Below the pieces are notes generated by a model that saw only the letters and a program-made list of their open reading frames with translations, did no database searches and was not told the DNA's origin. Positions 8,583 through 21,865 of a stretch of 64,000 nt of DNA are shown in pieces. Location: IMG/VR virus record IMGVR_UViG_3300008450_000020, positions 9,622 to 73,621 of that record; one strand, 5' to 3'. The DNA comes from a virus. Every line of letters starts with the position of its first letter. Positions within the stretch are counted from its first letter, which is position 1. The translations under genes and the position numbers were made by a program.

Positions 8583-10592
8583 TTAGAAAGTTACGTTGTA
8601 AATACCTTGAATTTCTTTTCCTGTAGCCCGGATAATTACTTTATCTGAGCGTGTGGAAGAGAAGCCTAAACCACTCAATTGATCTTGAGTAGGTTCGCAT
8701 TTGATCTTGCTACCCAAGATTTCAAATGTTTTACGATGTTGAGTTAATGCAGTGTTCAAGAATTCATTAAAGAATCCTCGAACAGGTTGATCATTCTTGC
8801 ATTTATCAATGAAGAAGAAATGATGCAAATTGCCTTTTGCTTCTTCGCTATCCCAGTGATTAGGAGAGAACATAATCGTATTTACTTTCGTAAATTGATT
8901 TGTAGAGATACCCCATTTATCTTGAGAGATGGATGAAGAAGTTAATCCTTTTGTTGGGATGAATTCAGTAACTACACCATTTTTTATTTTGAATGTAGCA
9001 ATTGATTGATTACCAGAAAAATCACCTTGTTTAGACAACGTATGTACTACACCGGCATTAACCAATTCAAACGAAAAGCCTTTGTTTTCATTGGAACGCT
9101 TGGAATACATATTGCTCCAGATAGAATATTCCCCATCTTTAGGGTTATCCCATGTGATATTTTCTACTGGCTCAGTAGTACGAGAACCTGGGCCATTGGC
9201 ATCAATGTCCAAGAAACCGCCATCTCTTCCACGAGAATTATGGAAGCAGATAATCTCACCTGAAGGTGTTTTTACATGTAAATCTTGGTCATCGATATTG
9301 AACCACGCCAGTGAACAACGTAAGGTAGCATTTGTTTTGCCTCCTTTAGCTTTCACACGAGTTTCAATTAATGAGTCAGTTACCCCACCTTCGTATGCCC
9401 AACCAAACTCATTTTTCCATTGGAAGAGAGGAGTGGCACCTACAGGATGTTGTGGAGCAGTCAAGGTTACAAAGTTACCTTGATGACGGTTTTCAACGTA
9501 CAGCTCGATTGAAGAAGCTTTAGGTAAGATGCTCACCATAAAGTCAGCAATCTTGATATCTTTGGCTTTAGTGATATCAACTGGTTTCTCTTTCATGTCA
9601 GCTAAAGCTAAGCCAAGCAAACCCTCTTTAAGCTGGTTTTGAACAGAGTTATCTACCCAGAGAACATTCTGAACACTGATGTCAGAAAGATTCGCCATAC
9701 GGCGCTCTAGGCTCTCTTCCAAACCTAGAGATTTGATTGTATCAACGGCTTGCTTTGCCATTGTCGGTGTGACCAATGATGTTGGATGCTTGTAATTTAC
9801 AGGATCAACTTTGACACCATAAGCACGTACAGCTACGTCCAAGTCCATACCATCAGATAGATCAACTGCTAATGTGCCGATCACTGTATTGCGGAAGCGT
9901 GCAGAAGGTTTATTGTAGTTTTCCCAAACAAACAAATCCTTGTTAGTTGCTTTGATGAATTCTTTTTTCAAACCAATGAATTCATCTACTGCGCGTTTGA
10001 ATTCTTCACCACGATAAAGAGGTTTGTTTTCTTTATCGTTAATCATGTCCATGATGTCAACTAAGACATCCAAAGTGATTTCTGTTAAACCACGTTTCAT
10101 GACTTGAACGATTGCATTAATACTGCCTGTTTCTTCACCTACTTTTTGTGTGTAAGCATGTGCAGGAACTACACCATGAAAGTGTTTCCAAGTCTTTACA
10201 GCACCGGACTCCAACAATTGTTTTGTTGATTCATTGCCATAAGTCTTTTCGTTAGAGAAGAATACTTTTTCAATTGGTTTAGATAAGACCAATTCATGTA
10301 AAGCTTTGGCAACTACATCATAAGGATATTCCAAACCAGGAACATCCCAGATTGTGCTCACAACACCATCTTTGATAGTAACTAAGTTGCCCAAGTTACG
10401 GATGAAGTTACTGCAGCAATTACAAGAATGCTCTGTACGAGTCAAGTAGATTGGATCAGTACCTTCAGGAAATGCTTTGAGATAAGCATCAAACAATTCA
10501 TTACGATCTGCTGTCACTTCATACAAAATGTTCTTTGCCATTGCAGAGTATTTAGTATGGATTGCTTTAGCAAAAGAGGAAAAATTAGACAT
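8583..10592 (-). CDS. Conserved phage protein with N-terminal HxCxCC motif and YfaP/DUF2135-like domain
   Basis: HSCNCC; LRCSLAW..DDQDLHV.TPSGE...GGFLDIDAN...PVENITW. Confidence 0.75.
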   Translation of the reverse strand: MSNFSSFAKAIHTKYSAMAKNILYEVTADRNELFDAYLKAFPEGTDPIYLTRTEHSCNCCSNFIRNLGNLVTIKDGVVSTIWDVPGLEYPYDVVAKALHELVLSKPIEKVFFSNEKTYGNESTKQLLESGAVKTWKHFHGVVPAHAYTQKVGEETGSINAIVQVMKRGLTEITLDVLVDIMDMINDKENKPLYRGEEFKRAVDEFIGLKKEFIKATNKDLFVWENYNKPSARFRNTVIGTLAVDLSDGMDLDVAVRAYGVKVDPVNYKHPTSLVTPTMAKQAVDTIKSLGLEESLERRMANLSDISVQNVLWVDNSVQNQLKEGLLGLALADMKEKPVDITKAKDIKIADFMVSILPKASSIELYVENRHQGNFVTLTAPQHPVGATPLFQWKNEFGWAYEGGVTDSLIETRVKAKGGKTNATLRCSLAWFNIDDQDLHVKTPSGEIICFHNSRGRDGGFLDIDANGPGSRTTEPVENITWDNPKDGEYSIWSNMYSKRSNENKGFSFELVNAGVVHTLSKQGDFSGNQSIATFKIKNGVVTEFIPTKGLTSSSISQDKWGISTNQFTKVNTIMFSPNHWDSEEAKGNLHHFFFIDKCKNDQPVRGFFNEFLNTALTQHRKTFEILGSKIKCEPTQDQLSGLGFSSTRSDKVIIRATGKEIQGIYNVTF

Positions 10593-14863: not shown

Positions 14864-14899
14864 AAAAAAAAATGAGACACCTCAATTAAGAGATGTCTC
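14864..14899 (-). terminator. Intrinsic terminator after RNAP II subunit B
   Basis: GAGACACCTC-AATTAA-GAGATGTCTC preceded by A9. Confidence 0.75.
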
Positions 14900-14919
14900 G
14901 GCACTACTACTTCAAAATA

Positions 14920-14934
14920 GGGGCAGGATGCCCC
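14920..14934. promoter_or_regulatory. GGGCA-GGA-TGCCC hairpin element, copy 1
   Basis: Identical 13-mer also present at 57078-57090; both copies are intergenic. Confidence 0.5.
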
Positions 14935-14950: not shown

Positions 14951-16201
14951 TTATGTTAAAGCATAATTAGACTTAAGAATCAAACTAGATAAGTTGTTTG
15001 ATTTCTTGGTGTAAGTTCCTTTGACACCATGAATCTGACTGAGGATATCTGAGAGTATTTCACTATCAGCTAATTCAGCAAAGATTTCAATGTAATGCTT
15101 ACGTAACTGTTCCATATATTTAGGAGAACATTTATATTCATCATGAATAGTAATAATCTCAAATGGAGCATGTTCATTCATACTCATACAGATCTCACGT
15201 AACTTAATCAACAATGAAGTAGGAATTGCTTTTGCATCTTCATAAGTCAAATAAGGAATCATTGTGATGTCTGTCATCTTGCTGCGTTCATACTGCTCCA
15301 AGTAGTAAGCCAACTTAGGAGAAGGTGTGCGGCCATGATAGCTAGTTGCGTATGTATTGCGATAATTAATCTCTGCATTAAGGATACTCAGTGCATTAAT
15401 TAATTCATTTGGTTTGTAGTTACAACGACGGTGCATTGAACGTAAGATGTAAGCATCAATAGAGTGAATCACATTAGCTGCATTACTTAAACCAGATTTA
15501 GTACCTTCATTCTCATAATAATAATAAGTGAAAGTAGCATGATCCAATTCATCAACTTCAATACGAGCTTCCTTTTTCTGCATTACTTTTACACGCGCAT
15601 AGAAGCCATCAGGAAGTGTCCATGCATGTACTTTAGCATTTGCTTGCCATGAACTCAAAAGCTCTTGGAGAAGCTCCCATGCACCCGGAGCTACAATATT
15701 TGCAGCTTGATAGAATGCATTCAATTCAGGGGTATCTTCACCGAAGACTTCTTTAGGTACAAGATTTGAACCATAGAATGAAGTCATCATAGCGCGCTTA
15801 GCATTATCTCTTGAAATATCAACTGATAAGCCTTGTTGAATAAGGATATTATTCATGGCTTGGGTTAATGAGGAATACGCATCTGCACGTACATCAGGAT
15901 CAACTAAACCAGTTGCAGTAGCGCCGGCTATACAGCCTGTTATGGCACTCATGATTTGGATACCTGAGCATACTGAGTCTAGTCCTACAAGGTGCCCTGT
16001 AGGTTTTCCTGATTGAACCTGACGGATAGCTAAAACAGCTTTTTTGTACAGAGGTACTGTTTCTGCTTGAGCCGATAAAGCTTCAAGATTTTTGATGTTA
16101 TCTGTAGCCCATTGAATACGTTCTTCAAATGTGACTTTATCTAAACCAAAGTGATTGGCTAAGTCGATGAGCATGTATTGAAATGGTGTATAAGATTTCA
16201 T
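14951..16201 (-). CDS. RNA polymerase II subunit B (N4 gp16-like)
   Basis: T7-like motifs A (LDSVCSGIQ), B (RDNAKRAMMTSFYGS) and C (IHDEY); ANVIHSIDA. Confidence 0.95.
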   Translation of the reverse strand: MKSYTPFQYMLIDLANHFGLDKVTFEERIQWATDNIKNLEALSAQAETVPLYKKAVLAIRQVQSGKPTGHLVGLDSVCSGIQIMSAITGCIAGATATGLVDPDVRADAYSSLTQAMNNILIQQGLSVDISRDNAKRAMMTSFYGSNLVPKEVFGEDTPELNAFYQAANIVAPGAWELLQELLSSWQANAKVHAWTLPDGFYARVKVMQKKEARIEVDELDHATFTYYYYENEGTKSGLSNAANVIHSIDAYILRSMHRRCNYKPNELINALSILNAEINYRNTYATSYHGRTPSPKLAYYLEQYERSKMTDITMIPYLTYEDAKAIPTSLLIKLREICMSMNEHAPFEIITIHDEYKCSPKYMEQLRKHYIEIFAELADSEILSDILSQIHGVKGTYTKKSNNLSSLILKSNYALT

Positions 16202-16251
16202 GGAAATGTTCCTATTAGATTGAGGGTAACTAAAAGAGATTTATTTAATGA

Positions 16252-16512
16252 TTAATTGCCTATTAAGGCAATGAGTGCTTGAACTTGTGAAGGTAATTGT
16301 TCTAGTTGAGCAGTTTCCCAATTTGAACCCCCATTAGACATAGGGACGTACACATAGTAAATATGTTGTTCTCCGTCTCTATCTAAATATTGCCAGATAG
16401 AACCGTGTTCACGTTCATTAATATCTTCATGTACATCGTAATAAAGTATTTTTAATGTATCCGGAAATATCAATCTACCTAATAAATTTGGTTTTCTATG
16501 AAGGGTTGGCAT
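16252..16512 (-). CDS. Array member 11 (C-terminal P-x-x-h-K-A-h-h-x-L motif family)
   Basis: Ends WETAQLEQLPSQVQALIALIGN; clear paralogue of 16521..16778. Confidence 0.8.
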   Translation of the reverse strand: MPTLHRKPNLLGRLIFPDTLKILYYDVHEDINEREHGSIWQYLDRDGEQHIYYVYVPMSNGGSNWETAQLEQLPSQVQALIALIGN

Positions 16513-16520
16513 GTACTTTC

Positions 16521-16778
16521 CTATTCTATTAGAGAAATTAAAGCTTTAATCTCAGGAGGAATATCTGTATAAGAGATGTCTCTCCATGACTCGATTATCT
16601 CTACAGAATGACAAATAAGGTGCAAACTATCCCCATATTGATGTCCTCTGATGTAAGTCCAAATATCCCCTATCTGTTTATCATGAATGTTTTCCCCGCT
16701 ATCAAAGAATAAAACTTCTTTGGTTGAGGGTCTTACAGTGAATCCTACTGTTTTAGGAGTTGGGTTTGTTGTAGGCAT
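16521..16778 (-). CDS. Array member 10
   Basis: Ends WRDISYTDIPPEIKALISLIE. Confidence 0.8.
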   Translation of the reverse strand: MPTTNPTPKTVGFTVRPSTKEVLFFDSGENIHDKQIGDIWTYIRGHQYGDSLHLICHSVEIIESWRDISYTDIPPEIKALISLIE

Positions 16779-16787
16779 AAAGTTCCT

Positions 16788-17060
16788 TTATTTAATTAAG
16801 GTAAATGCAGCAAGTACATGAGAAGGAACTTCTGACTTATTGCGCAATAACCATCGAAAAGTTTTTGCAGAATTATTTGGAGTATGGAAATGATTCAATA
16901 CTGCTTTATAAAAATACTCTTCTGTATTGGTGTGAACTCCGCATAACCATTCATGTTCTGATGAAGGAGATCTTGTATAAAAATATTCATTTTTATCCTT
17001 ATGATCTACAACACATGCATTGGTTACAGAATCTACGATAATTATTTTTTCAAGGGTCAT
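16788..17060 (-). CDS. Array member 9
   Basis: Ends WLLRNKSEVPSHVLAAFTLIK. Confidence 0.8.
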   Translation of the reverse strand: MTLEKIIIVDSVTNACVVDHKDKNEYFYTRSPSSEHEWLCGVHTNTEEYFYKAVLNHFHTPNNSAKTFRWLLRNKSEVPSHVLAAFTLIK

Positions 17061-17062
17061 AG

Positions 17063-17443
17063 TTATTCCTGTTGTATATCTAATTTAATGCCTAGTAAAT
17101 TCAATAAAGATATATGTATATCAGGGATGTCTTTTGTTTCACGAATATACGTGTACATACGTCCAAAGGCATTAGCAATAGCATTAGTTTTGATAGCGAA
17201 TCCTGAAGGAGAAATAAATAAAGTATCAGGAGGGTATAAAATAGATACGTCAATACACTCATTAGGATTCATCACCGCGTTATACATGTGAACACCGTGC
17301 CCAATCATAGGTAATTGATCGGGTTCTATCACAATGATGAATTTAGTGTCTCCCCCAATTGGATTATCAAGACTTGGGATAACATCTAAAATAATTAAGT
17401 TTTCCTTGAATTCTTCAAGAAATTTGACAGGTGTTTCTAACAT
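17063..17443 (-). CDS. Array member 8
   Basis: Likely start MLETPVKF (AAGGA RBS); ends KDIPDIHISLLNLLGIKLD; paralogue of 17710 and 18065 genes. Confidence 0.8.
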   Translation of the reverse strand: MLETPVKFLEEFKENLIILDVIPSLDNPIGGDTKFIIVIEPDQLPMIGHGVHMYNAVMNPNECIDVSILYPPDTLFISPSGFAIKTNAIANAFGRMYTYIRETKDIPDIHISLLNLLGIKLDIQQE

Positions 17444-17453
17444 AATTTTCCTT

Positions 17454-17735
17454 TTATAAATCAAGAAGTTTAATGATATTTTTGATGTTGTCTGGAACAT
17501 GTAATGCTTGTACGTGTGACCATCTGTAAATGTAAGTAACCTCTGCATTCTTACCTAAAGAAGATATTCGTTTACTTGGGTAATAAGCTCTGCACCCTAC
17601 ATCAACATCAAACAACCATTGATCTTTATTGGTTGCTCTTGGTGTTCTAGATTCATTGATTAATGTAACTGCCATATTCTCATCGATGATTACAAATCGA
17701 GTGTCTTTATTATTCAAGATCAAGCTCCAATCCAA
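17454..17735 (-). CDS. Array member 7
   Basis: Ends WSHVQALHVPDNIKNIIKLLDL; start uncertain. Confidence 0.75.
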   Translation of the reverse strand: MDWSLILNNKDTRFVIIDENMAVTLINESRTPRATNKDQWLFDVDVGCRAYYPSKRISSLGKNAEVTYIYRWSHVQALHVPDNIKNIIKLLDL

Positions 17736-18081
17736 GTAAGGAAATCATTGCTCTGTTTTCTGCAGAAACATATTCAAAATAATCTGCTTGAGTCCAGATC
17801 TCTGTCCAATGTTCTTCTGTTTCTTTATACACACGCATAACAAAACCATATCCATTAATGAATACAGTGTCTTCTGGAAATAAGATAGAGATATCAATAT
17901 ACTTATTTTGACTGGGGTTAAATAAAGCGTCATACATCGATTCAGAATTACTGAATCTAACTGGTTCATTTGGCTCAAATACCATAAAGAAAAATTCACC
18001 TATTTCAGAACACTTAAGAAGTAAGTCTTCTTTAAAGTATTCAAGCGTTCTATAAATTTTACGGTCAGTCATTTTCATCAC
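17710..18081 (-). CDS. Array member 6
   Basis: FKEDLLL..VFEPNEP..MYDALFNP..DISILFPEDTVF; ends YVSAENRAMISLLGLELD. Confidence 0.8.
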   Translation of the reverse strand: MMKMTDRKIYRTLEYFKEDLLLKCSEIGEFFFMVFEPNEPVRFSNSESMYDALFNPSQNKYIDISILFPEDTVFINGYGFVMRVYKETEEHWTEIWTQADYFEYVSAENRAMISLLGLELDLE

Positions 18082-18424
18082 TCCGTTGAAATGATATGTT
18101 TAATAAAGACAAGGTTGCTTTAATTTGAGGAGGTAACTCCTTTAGCTTTTTAAGTGCTCTCCATTCACCACAAACAACCTTCATTGCATAAGGGAATCTA
18201 CTATCTACTCCACTAAAGAAATATGTACCACTTGGGTAACGAATACTCATGTCATAAGTAGGATCATCATTACCAAATATTGCGTAATATTGTTCTTCAG
18301 TATTACCAAATACAGGGGGTTTATTTGGTTCAAAGACGATTAAAAAATGCTGAGATCTCTCATCTGGAAATTGAATAAGTAAATCTCTCTTAAAGTGATT
18401 AAAACAGTTATACGTAAATTTCAT
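18065..18424 (-). CDS. Array member 5
   Basis: FKRDLLI..IVFEPNKP..DMSIRYPSGTYF; WRALKKLKELPPQIKATLSLLNI. Confidence 0.8.
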   Translation of the reverse strand: MKFTYNCFNHFKRDLLIQFPDERSQHFLIVFEPNKPPVFGNTEEQYYAIFGNDDPTYDMSIRYPSGTYFFSGVDSRFPYAMKVVCGEWRALKKLKELPPQIKATLSLLNISFQRSDEND

Positions 18425-18441
18425 AATCTTCCTTATGTGAG

Positions 18442-18708
18442 TTATTTAAGCAAAGCAAGTAATGCTTTGTATTCAGGGTTGATATACCTGTCTGGTAATA
18501 CTTGAGTTCGTGAATTAGATTTCACACCAATCCAGCTATTATTTCTGAAGCAGAAATATAAATCACCGGCTTGAATAGGCGAGTAACTTCCTCTTGCTAC
18601 TCCATAAAGCAAATAGGGTTCTCTTCCATTACAAGGAATAATTAGCTTTTTGAATTTAGGATCTAATGGAGGAGAATTTTCATATTCTCCATTGTCAATA
18701 ATTACCAT
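18442..18708 (-). CDS. Array member 4
   Basis: Ends YINPEYKALLALLK. Confidence 0.8.
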   Translation of the reverse strand: MVIIDNGEYENSPPLDPKFKKLIIPCNGREPYLLYGVARGSYSPIQAGDLYFCFRNNSWIGVKSNSRTQVLPDRYINPEYKALLALLK

Positions 18709-18986
18709 ACGGTCCCCTCTATAAAATTTAATGGGTGTTCTGGAAGACCCCCCACATACAAAGTTAAAAATGCTTTTATATGTTCAGGGAATTCTTTAAC
18801 AGGATTCTCTATGAAGTAATAAAATACATCTCCATCGGAATACCAAATAGTATAAAAAGGTTTTTTATCGTCACCAAAACTATCCCATTCAGTACTAATA
18901 GGTTTATTTAGTGTGGTCATACCACAAGGAATGGTCATCATTTTAGTGAGATCATCTGTTATACGTATTTTACGAATGTTTTGCAT
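18702..18986 (-). CDS. Array member 3
   Basis: KEFPEHIKAFLTLYVG near the C-terminus. Confidence 0.8.
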   Translation of the reverse strand: MQNIRKIRITDDLTKMMTIPCGMTTLNKPISTEWDSFGDDKKPFYTIWYSDGDVFYYFIENPVKEFPEHIKAFLTLYVGGLPEHPLNFIEGTVW

Positions 18987-18995
18987 GTAGTATCC

Positions 18996-19307
18996 TTAAG
19001 GAAAATATGAAGATAGTTCATTAAATTGTGCAGTAGTTATTGCACCTATTAAGAATAAATAATTTTTGAAGATTTCAGGAACTTCTTTGGGAGATATAAC
19101 GCTTCTTTTAGAAGTGAAATTACTTAAAGTAATTCTTTCATTCTCTTTGAAGGCATAATAAATAATCCCTGCACTTGTGTAACCAACAGTAAGATTTTCT
19201 ATAGCTCTATAATCTCTTGTACCTGACCCATGCACAAGGATTTCAAACCTATCTTCAAGCACTCCCTTATCTATTTGCTGTGGTACATAAACATAAAATT
19301 TAAACAT
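18996..19307 (-). CDS. Array member 2
   Basis: KFYVYVPQQ...GIIYYAF...PKEVPEIFKNYLFLIG; paralogue of 19311..19619. Confidence 0.8.
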   Translation of the reverse strand: MFKFYVYVPQQIDKGVLEDRFEILVHGSGTRDYRAIENLTVGYTSAGIIYYAFKENERITLSNFTSKRSVISPKEVPEIFKNYLFLIGAITTAQFNELSSYFP

Positions 19308-19310
19308 ACA

Positions 19311-19619
19311 TTATCCTTCAATATTTCTAACACGTTTATTAATGTAATCAAGATCCTCTTTGTTTAACTCCCCTAGTAACAATAAATAGTTTATGAAAAC
19401 TTCTGGGAAATACTTAGGAAGCAAAGTCTTTCTATTAGCAGAAAATGAGTATTCACCAGCAGGTGTAGAATTGAGAAAACAATAATAATCAATACCTTCT
19501 GCAACTAATTCATTTGTGACTTGATAAAGAGATTTTGGGTCATTCATGTCGAGTGAGTAATCAATAGTAAAATAGTGTTCTTGGCTTGGTATGTAAACGT
19601 AATACTTAAGATTGCTCAT
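19311..19619 (-). CDS. Array member 1
   Basis: KYYVYIPSQ...GIDYYCF...PKYFPEVFINYLLLLG; start overlaps the RNAP subunit A stop. Confidence 0.8.
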   Translation of the reverse strand: MSNLKYYVYIPSQEHYFTIDYSLDMNDPKSLYQVTNELVAEGIDYYCFLNSTPAGEYSFSANRKTLLPKYFPEVFINYLLLLGELNKEDLDYINKRVRNIEG

Positions 19620-20545
19620 ATAAATACTCCATCAATGTATTCTTCCTTATGCAATTCAATCATTGCTTTCTTGAATGCAGTCCCTTGTGGATTAATGTGA
19701 TAGCCTTGAGAGTAAATTCTTCCTCTCTTATCTACCTTGTGAGTTAAATGAAATTGGTTATCTTGTTCTGCAATGAGGCTGTAGAAGCGATAACTAATCT
19801 CTTTGTGTTTCTTCCATTGGTTTCGTTTATCTGGAGTATCCAAAGTAAATGTAGGATCTTCAGATACCTTACAAAGGAACTCTGTACATAACTTCAATTT
19901 CACTTGGTTCATCGTATTGAGAACATCAATACAGATATCCCCATTGTGATGATTGTGGGGGCCTAGGATCAATGAATCATCATGAGTGAGATAACCACTC
20001 GAATAATTATTGATGAGCTGTCTAGGCTCACAAACCATGGGTGGAAGATATTGTGTATTTTCGATGAAACCTACAAGTTCTTCTGAGATAGGGATTCTTG
20101 AGACAATAACCAAGGAAGCATACTTATTCATTTTAAGAATATCGAATGCATCTGTGGAACATAGAACTGCTACTAGCTCTGCAACAGTTTTAATACTGTC
20201 TGCCTTGTCACTGAATTTGAGTCTTCCTGCCAACTCACCAGTGATACTGGTAAACAGCTCAGGTGTTTGGCAATAAGAAATACCAACATAAATATCAATC
20301 ACAAGCTCTCTAATATTCAAGGGTTTCAATTGCGCTACACGAGCATTCTTTGATTTGTATGAATAAGTCTTACTCATATAATCTTTGATTGCTTGTACAC
20401 CTTCATCAATCTTACCAATCATAAATGTATTACTAAGAATCTCTTTTCTAATTTTCTGGTCAATATGCTTTCTGTTATAACGAAGTTCAGTCCATTCTTG
20501 ACGGACGACATTGAGCATTGGCTCATAGGAAGTATCCTGATCCAT
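19616..20545 (-). CDS. RNA polymerase II subunit A (N4 gp15-like)
   Basis: YLPPMVCEP, SGYLT..DSLILG, THKVDKRGRIYSQGYHINPQG (DxxGR motif). Confidence 0.93.
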   Translation of the reverse strand: MDQDTSYEPMLNVVRQEWTELRYNRKHIDQKIRKEILSNTFMIGKIDEGVQAIKDYMSKTYSYKSKNARVAQLKPLNIRELVIDIYVGISYCQTPELFTSITGELAGRLKFSDKADSIKTVAELVAVLCSTDAFDILKMNKYASLVIVSRIPISEELVGFIENTQYLPPMVCEPRQLINNYSSGYLTHDDSLILGPHNHHNGDICIDVLNTMNQVKLKLCTEFLCKVSEDPTFTLDTPDKRNQWKKHKEISYRFYSLIAEQDNQFHLTHKVDKRGRIYSQGYHINPQGTAFKKAMIELHKEEYIDGVFI

Positions 20546-20575: not shown

Positions 20576-20615
20576 AAAAAAAGAGTTACTTACCCTTGGA
20601 TAACCAAAGGTAAGT
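20576..20615 (-). terminator. Intrinsic terminator
   Basis: ACTTACCCTTGG-ATAA-CCAAAGGTAAGT with A-run on the left. Confidence 0.6.
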
Positions 20616-21580: not shown

Positions 21581-21865
21581 TTACAGACCGAAGCCTGGGA
21601 GAGCAAACTCTGCCGGAGCAGAATTGACTGCCGTGTATTCCAAGATCAACGCAGAGAGCAAGATCGCTACGTTATTCTCGTCTGCGTCTAGCCACTCACG
21701 TAAGTGTTTCTGATCTATGTTGGAATCTTTTAAACCGATTGCACCCAACTTTTTACGACTACCATCCTTCTTTGGGATGTAGAAATTCAAATAACCGGTT
21801 GGGTTATCTTTTACTGCATTTGCATTGTTACCAGAATCAGATTGATTGTCTTTGTTAAAGGCCAT
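21581..21865 (-). CDS. N4 gp2/Drc-like ssDNA-binding RNAP II coactivator
   Basis: MAFNK...GYLNFYIPKKDGSRKKLGAIGLKDS signature; early position. Confidence 0.85.
   Translation of the reverse strand: MAFNKDNQSDSGNNANAVKDNPTGYLNFYIPKKDGSRKKLGAIGLKDSNIDQKHLREWLDADENNVAILLSALILEYTAVNSAPAEFALPGFGL

Follow-up and report, generated by a model that had tools for sequence, protein, structure and literature searches.

We examined a 64,000-nucleotide (nt) stretch of viral DNA (IMG/VR record IMGVR_UViG_3300008450_000020, positions 9,622 to 73,621; hereafter the window), which belongs to a phage genome of 73,621 bases with terminal repeats, and in particular an array of small genes lying between the two genes of its split, N4-type RNA polymerase II (RNAP II). 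Window coordinates are used throughout unless marked "genome". A preliminary description, made from the letters of the window, had reported eleven tightly packed open reading frames (ORFs) of 85-126 amino acids (aa) filling this gap, and all of them are there: eleven minus-strand ORFs of that size at 16252-19619 occupy the whole 3.4 kilobases (kb) between homologues of N4 gp15 and gp16, whose genes in N4 are only 47 base pairs (bp) apart. Spacers within the array measure at most 17 nt, and the genes otherwise overlap. The first gene of the operon encodes the RNAP II small subunit (19616..20545, minus strand; N4 gp15/RNAP1 homologue), which is 35% identical to N4 RNAP1 by BLASTP (expectation value (E) 1e-33), can be aligned with 46 relatives (alignment A5) and is overlapped by 4 nt by the adjoining array gene. 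The last encodes the large subunit (14951..16201, minus strand; N4 gp16 homologue), recognized by Pfam RNA_pol (PF00940, E 3.5e-16) and 33% identical to N4 gp16 by BLASTP (E 5e-70). A consensus scan of the minus strand for terminator-like sites gave a hairpin with a 12-bp stem just upstream of the small-subunit gene (20588..20615), two hairpins just downstream of the large-subunit gene (14874..14934) and none within the array. The downstream pair probably marks the end of the transcription unit and, because hairpins lie at both ends and none inside, the small-subunit gene, the eleven genes and the large-subunit gene would be transcribed as one unit. This is in line with the early operon to which the genes had been assigned. 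As had also been stated, no functional description was found in the literature: neither the accessible text of four papers (PMC7145618, PMC9163698, PMC3715699, PMC7650795) nor a wider literature search, supplements aside, yielded a statement on genes between the RNAP II subunit genes.

Read from the small-subunit side, the array opens with the paralogues m11 (19311..19619, 102 aa) and m10 (18996..19307, 103 aa; BLASTP E 1.2e-12 between them), in which the C-terminal motifs FPEVFINYLLLL and VPEIFKNYLFLI are followed by tails of 20 and 16 residues, respectively. They are followed by m9 (18702..18986, 94 aa), with motif FPEHIKAFLTLY and a 17-residue tail, and by m8 (18442..18708, 88 aa; INPEYKALLALL), the array member nearest in layout to the metagenomic archetype described below. 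The next genes are m7 (18065..18424, 119 aa; LPPQIKATLSLL), of the m4/m6/m7 subfamily; m6 (17710..18081; VSAENRAMISLL), of 123 aa or probably 122 with its ATG one codon in; m5 (17454..17735, 93 aa; VPDNIKNIIKLL), which has an uncertain TTG start and overlaps the end of m6 by 26 nt; and m4 (17063..17443, 126 aa; IPDIHISLLNLL; BLASTP E 9e-14 to m6), which we took from its ATG as a longer, 161-aa version would run into the neighbouring gene. The series closes with m3 (16788..17060, 90 aa; VPSHVLAAFTLI), m2 (16521..16778, 85 aa; IPPEIKALISLI) and the m2 paralogue m1 (16252..16512, 86 aa; LPSQVQALIALI; E 2.8e-12), the final array gene ahead of the large subunit; all eleven lie on the minus strand. 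A ribosome site of the AGGA/GGAG type precedes the ATG in nine of the eleven, and in m6 a GGAG precedes the ATG one codon in, bringing the total to ten; for m5, TTG is the only start and no ribosome site is visible.

The 12-residue motifs quoted in the preliminary description were found exactly in all 11 proteins, ending 1-20 residues ahead of the stop codon. The Trp said to stand often some 8-10 residues upstream is present at 8-9 residues in six of the eleven (m1, m2, m3, m5, m6 and m7). Over the wider family the motif reads as an acidic residue, V/I/L, P, any residue, E, a hydrophobic residue and K/R, then a Leu-rich helix, within about 25 residues of the stop. With a leave-subfamily-out 12-residue profile run on the 478 ORFs of the window, held-out m1, m2, m5, m7 and m9 beat every non-array ORF; m8 was marginal, and m3, m4, m6, m10 and m11 were missed. 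The forward test set comprised 13,291 ORFs from 85 sequences, namely this genome, four named phages and 80 IMG/VR loci. Outside this genome, a profile of the array's own 11 motifs scored 13 ORFs at 6 bits or above on the coding strand and 0 on the opposite strand, and in all 13 the motif lay at most 25 residues from the stop. In the reverse direction, a 28-residue profile built from 56 windows of other phages only picked out six of 570 genome ORFs at 4 bits or more; these were the six best in the genome and all of them array members, with m9 the top match of the whole genome (12.3 bits) and m2 at 12.2 bits. After three rounds of iteration the tail profile matched, at 8 bits or more, 112 ORFs elsewhere and five of this phage's own on the coding strand as against one on the opposite strand. 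Within the array it gave five members 13-19 bits (m2 scored 19.4 and m3 14.1), found m4, m8, m10 (6.7 bits) and m11 weak and did not detect m6. The preliminary description had allowed that the motif might score no better than chance; judged by these profile scores, it exceeds chance.

The array had been described as one divergent gene family, and all-vs-all BLASTP bears this out in the form of nested subfamilies: m1/m2, m4/m6/m7 and m10/m11 group at E 1e-12 to 1e-14, with m3, m5, m8 and m9 as singletons. A search for DNA-level repeats in the array found none left, the longest being 32 nt at 72%, and the duplications must therefore be old. On the same ground we rejected a recent gene accordion. 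A twelfth family member of 84 aa, with motif IPPQIIAAKKLL, lies on the minus strand at genome 7216-7470, about 2.2 kb before the start of the window and about 18 kb from the array, where it adjoins a 430-aa gene; the full A1 profile was too weak even to recover this copy (E 0.13). Contigs from three other freshwater studies, 80-95% identical, span parts of m1 to m8, and since related strains in other studies retain the region, an assembly artefact can be rejected. Only contigs were aligned, and the stretches they leave uncovered carry no information. As judged from such alignments, the sequence changes fast even among strains. In two other freshwater studies, contigs carry 116 unrelated letters in place of the final 126 nt of m1 including the motif (window 16250-16375), with the flanks aligning.

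Rather than a peculiarity of this phage, the array is the large end of a Schitoviridae-wide pattern. In the nearest named phages, the Acinetobacter phages nACB1, At2 and Presley, the polymerase genes are separated by one or two small ORFs. A single large-subunit protein used as query for related loci gave no matches, and the 80 IMG/VR loci of our census were retrieved with an alignment of five large subunits; both subunit genes are present in 79, with a gap between them of 0 to 3898 bp. The C-terminal profile search of these Schitoviridae loci, as suggested in the preliminary description, recovered family members at the same locus. There were 68 motif ORFs in the gap (47.4 kb of DNA), 34 upstream (393 kb), six downstream (447 kb) and one inside a polymerase gene. 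The gap, 5% of the DNA examined, holds 68 of the 108 motif ORFs flanking the polymerase genes, and family genes are about 16-fold denser in it than in the upstream early region and about 100-fold denser than downstream. The split RNAP II gene pair is thus the preferred site of the family, and on reading the gap ORFs we met the same tail in one locus after another. At least one motif ORF was present in the gap in 29 of the 79 loci and anywhere in 40, the remaining 39 having no member within about 7 kb. Clustering of the 109 motif ORFs of the IMG/VR loci left 86 groups at 90% identity and 68 at 50%; the ORFs come from 34 distinct locus sets, so duplicate contigs do not drive the count. Five loci (L011, L012, L015, L018 and L023) have a polymerase 56-62% identical, adjacent subunit genes and no member in a locus of about 15 kb; in N4, a search of the first 14 kb gave no convincing member. 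At the other extreme, 12 motif ORFs reach at least 8 bits in the 3.9-kb gap of a metagenomic relative (L029:3103-7001), where about 19 can be counted by eye; this phage and that relative carry the largest arrays seen. The L029 array is as large as or larger than the one described here, and several of its tails are near-identical (FPxEFRMALLLLG).

The family reaches well beyond these loci. Searched against 1.84 billion representatives, the A7 profile (39 sequences) matched 490 representative clusters at E ≤1e-3 and 92 at E ≤1e-10; among the 150 matches listed, 149 are 65-109 aa long, most of them aligned end to end. All ten representatives that were looked up are metagenomic and without a name. 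Sequence P0011 (109 aa) gave two matched stretches and carries the domain twice in tandem. Established resources contributed little. No Pfam family covers the array members (ten of the 11 scanned) or the wider family, none is common to more than one of 54 members of the archetype alignment (A8), and PHROGs held nothing usable for ten array members (m11 left out). By tblastn against 50,697 phage records, two of the ten representatives looked up, P0023 and P0006, gave no match and m7 none at E ≤1; a word-based protein search with m6 found only itself, and blastn with the 5.7-kb block matched polymerase parts only, in 58 records. We consider it very probable that the eleven genes and the twelfth are old, strongly diverged tandem duplicates of one Schitoviridae-wide small-protein family that has expanded here.

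Among phages with names, the closest parallel is Litunavirus Ab09, which has three ORFs of 66-94 aa (ORF19, ORF20 and ORF21) in the same inter-subunit slot. Two of the three end in closely matching motifs, for example IPKELQALLTIY and LPADLRAMLVIW, and relatives of ORF21 occur in 71 phage records, 69 of them from Pseudomonas phages. Ab09 differs in having three copies against eleven here, and beyond the tail there is no pairwise or profile similarity. The three are assigned to PHROGs 8597, 14277 and 8144, each labelled 'unknown function', none of which matched the ten array members searched (m11 left out) at E ≤1; since the Litunavirus ORFs are split over three PHROGs, no library treats them as one family.

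The case for membership of the array genes in the wider family is drawn from the tail profile tests, from hhalign, from the identical genomic slot and from similar protein size. The array alignment matched five of the six other subfamily alignments at 51-89% hhalign probability (E 2.7e-6 to 1.6e-4) over 20-40 C-terminal columns, with all 12 reversed-profile controls at ≤0.2%, and A1 matched A8 at 67% over 26 columns. Across subfamilies only the C-terminal ~25 residues are statistically recognizable. The picture of a common tail on dissimilar N-termini was therefore correct as sequence statistics. It had been taken to mean that a variable head is joined to a separate docking tail, a conclusion that we do not favour. 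The archetype, a metagenomic form of about 72 aa, is conserved over its full length, with Phe at 99%, Tyr at 93%, Gly at 90%, Tyr at 92% and Trp at 100%, and further on Pro at 86%, Asp at 83%, Val at 89%, Pro at 99% and Leu at 95%. It shares with the array members the tail motif, the genome position and the acidity and, as aligned, the Trp and the N-terminal hydrophobic strand and turn; it is shorter and conserved end to end, whereas the array members, at 85-126 aa, have insertions and some are tailed beyond the motif. In the MAFFT alignment A7, m8, m2, m1, m5, m3 and m9 share columns for the N-terminal strand, the Trp (at least 90%) and the Pro (at least 90%). By eye, an aromatic or hydrophobic strand and then a Gly/Asp/Asn/Pro turn open nearly all tail-bearing ORFs.

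Structure prediction gave a similar layout, with the motif helix right after three strands in two array members. In the AlphaFold2 model of m8, strands at residues 3-5, 8-10, 23-26, 29-33, 50-55, 58-63 and 68-71 are followed by a helix at 78-87, with a predicted local distance difference test (pLDDT) score of 76-87 over residues 50-88 and a mean of 63.1. The m7 model has an extra N-terminal helix, three strands and the motif helix at 99-107 (pLDDT 77-80; mean 64.5; predicted template-modelling score (pTM) 0.59), and an Atlas model of a 78-aa archetype member reached a pTM of 0.77 and a pLDDT of 0.81. Taken with the alignments, these models suggest one small beta-rich domain with the motif as its last helix, rather than a separate docking tail. 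Docking is weakened as an explanation of the motif, but three consecutive conserved Leu would exceed one face of a helix and leave room for an extra dimer or partner interface. Atlas structural look-alikes included nothing with a name. The weak rows of a fold search included small ORFs from N4-like phages of Pseudomonas as well as chromodomains and chemokines, all of which we read as common arrangements of three strands plus a helix.

Several results weigh against treating the array proteins as a single domain family joined to the archetype. Started from array members, jackhmmer reached only their own subfamilies and, started from other phages, it failed to reach the array members. The A8 profile gave no significant match in the genome by hmmsearch (the best array member, m2, ranked second at E 0.64), and single array subfamilies matched A8 at hhalign probabilities of just 0.5-56%. 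An N-terminal profile of the archetype, run on 112 motif ORFs of other phages, found 24 clear and 13 weak matches and none in 75, and recognized none of five own members tested; a putative common head is therefore argued from alignment A7 and by eye. The two AlphaFold models are of mediocre quality (mean pLDDT 63-65), with m8 falling below pLDDT 50 at residues 18-47. The preliminary description had named a helix buried in a shared fold as the finding that would speak for a plain paralogous family, and the models come close to this, with a motif helix that would probably be buried.

We propose, from the models and the alignment, that every member folds as one compact beta-rich domain, mostly acidic, in which an N-terminal hairpin leads through a variable middle to three strands and the C-terminal helix. 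The motif helix would be conserved since it holds the fold together, and the surface around it would be variable. Transcribed together with RNAP II within the first minutes after infection, the array genes would supply diversified small binders or inhibitors of host proteins, for takeover or counter-defence, and their quick gain, loss and duplication would follow from their being dispensable accessories in a permissive slot of the early operon. Gene sets that are early, dispensable, fast-evolving and repeatedly duplicated are the usual signature of host takeover or counter-defence. Close relatives show no copy and the first 14 kb of N4 no convincing one, and the family is therefore dispensable on an evolutionary scale; copy number per locus runs from 0 to at least 12. 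The gap also houses unrelated small ORFs and, in some loci, larger ones, and because these share it the gap behaves as a permissive insertion slot. Eight of the phage's 12 own copies have an isoelectric point (pI) below 6.2, and the 149 representatives have a median pI of 5.4, with 106 below 6 and 12 above 8. That the proteins act as binders in takeover or counter-defence is a tentative proposal, to which we give somewhat less than an even chance. The combination of an old, expanded family, a single domain and a binder mechanism is the best explanation as a whole, and we regard it as evenly balanced between right and wrong.

Other explanations share part of this evidence. The proteins might form an adaptor repertoire in which variable heads address different targets and a conserved amphipathic tail docks on one common partner, be it RNAP II, the AAA+/vWA pair, a protease or one another. 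Such a repertoire would account for cross-subfamily recognition being limited to the last ~25 residues, and for a tail whose three consecutive conserved Leu (95%, 76% and 69%), together with conserved Lys/Glu/Arg, appear more hydrophobic than the face of a sheet-packed helix needs; by eye, apparently unrelated small ORFs in the slot (in L075, L057 and the Presley array) also show hydrophobic LLG/LI-type ends. We nevertheless think it improbable. The archetype is conserved end to end as a ~72-aa domain with a compact model (pTM 0.77), the motif helix is predicted contiguous with the three strands at the highest confidence of the models, and the N-terminal strand, Trp and Pro are common to members in A7. 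The family also occurs on very different hosts, yet half of the related loci have no copy, so that a common phage-encoded partner would often have to do without it. The F-box and SOCS-box families likewise have many paralogues with a short common element and a divergent remainder; their box is a separate partner-binding module, whereas the motif here is apparently the last helix of a single small domain. A related arrangement, in which the conserved helix closes the fold and also serves as a common docking surface, so that interchangeable factors plug into one machine, most plausibly the split RNAP II, also seems unlikely to us. If it were true, that machine would be retargeted or protected across hosts, and copy number would track host targets or defences; if the tail did dock on RNAP II, a well-studied transcription scheme would have an unknown layer of control.

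The location between the subunit genes would be explained directly if the members were accessory factors of RNAP II, tuning assembly of the heterodimer, promoter choice or timing. The ~16-fold enrichment beside the polymerase genes (~100-fold relative to the downstream region) could mean such a functional tie; m11 overlaps the small-subunit gene, the block is free of internal terminator-like sites and, according to the accessible text of PMC7145618, N4-type RNAP II needs small cofactors, N4 gp2 and LUZ7 Drc. Other observations make an RNAP II factor unlikely: 39 of the 79 loci have no member within ~7 kb, among them close relatives with adjacent subunit genes, and N4 shows none that is convincing in its first 14 kb; a stoichiometric subunit would not be expected at a copy number of 0 to at least 12, 34 copies are found upstream of the polymerase genes and the twelfth copy of this phage ~18 kb off, and unrelated ORFs share the gap. 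The known cofactors of N4-like phages are, like the family, small early proteins whose genes lie near those of RNAP II. Drc, described in PMC7145618 as binding RNAP II and as basic (pI 9.16), is single-copy, in contrast to a family that is mostly acidic, multi-copy and often absent. The predicted layout of hairpin, three strands and terminal helix also invites comparison with Sso7d or chromo-like small proteins that would coat or compact DNA early in infection, and we take the consensus to resemble archaeal 7-kDa DNA-binding proteins. The mostly acidic character of the family (median pI 5.4) argues against a DNA-coating role, no Pfam family unites even two of the 54 A8 members and no solved chain was matched at E <1, which leaves this role very unlikely. 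That the ORFs are not real genes, or are decaying remnants, could be argued from m5, which lacks a canonical start. We give this almost no credence in view of eleven consecutive open frames on the operon strand, ribosome sites in ten of the 11, family profiles that match the coding strand only at the thresholds used, a region retained in related strains and 490 representative clusters elsewhere.

Arrays of comparable appearance occur at other positions in these phages. The accessible text of PMC9163698 describes LUZ7 gp87-gp115 as tandem small ORFans, and like the arrays of Presley, At2 and nACB1 they are tandem genes of unknown function encoding ~60-130 aa on the early/middle strand. They differ in lying at the right end of the genome or downstream of the large subunit and in having other tail patterns, and homology is not established. 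In Presley (L004, 3592-6499), At2 (L002, 1556-6431) and nACB1 (L001, 1910-5880), at least eight ORFs of ~85-130 aa lie downstream of the large subunit with an array-specific C-terminal pattern. The tails in Presley look like the LLGI with which m4 and m6 end. All ten At2 and nACB1 ORFs compared with PHROGs were without a match, and their A1 profile scores were weak.

The slot itself has other occupants. In one locus (L075:2889-5174) a 2.3-kb gap contains nine Cys-rich (CxxC-type) ORFs of ~80-95 aa with hydrophobic LLG/LLK tails, which look like a different family in the same slot. In two others (L068:6068-6730 and L072:6298-6960) the gap includes an ORF of ~220 aa that by eye looks homing-endonuclease-like, and in nACB1 an annotated HNH homing endonuclease (L001:5880-6461) is encoded next to the large subunit. 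The surroundings of the split polymerase genes thus look like a hot spot for insertions. Elsewhere in the window, a 94-aa minus-strand ORF at 21581-21865 has a 'Y-L/V-N-x-Y-h-P...DG' stretch common by eye with small ORFs upstream of the RNAP II genes in nACB1, At2, Presley and Ab09. It had no Pfam match, and it may be a conserved early protein, possibly an analogue of an RNAP II cofactor.

The N4-like phages form a large family, some of whose Pseudomonas and Acinetobacter members are studied for therapy, and for most of their early genes no function is known. The genes described here belong to a new, widespread and unnamed small-protein family with a fixed genomic home, of which this array holds eleven copies, and scattered orphan genes are thereby united in a single family with 490 or more sequence clusters. 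A fixed slot with a copy number of 0 to at least 12 makes a concrete, testable target, including the three copies in Pseudomonas Litunavirus. ORFans of Pseudomonas phages have been put through growth-inhibition screens. New inhibitors of bacterial proteins may reasonably be sought in this family.

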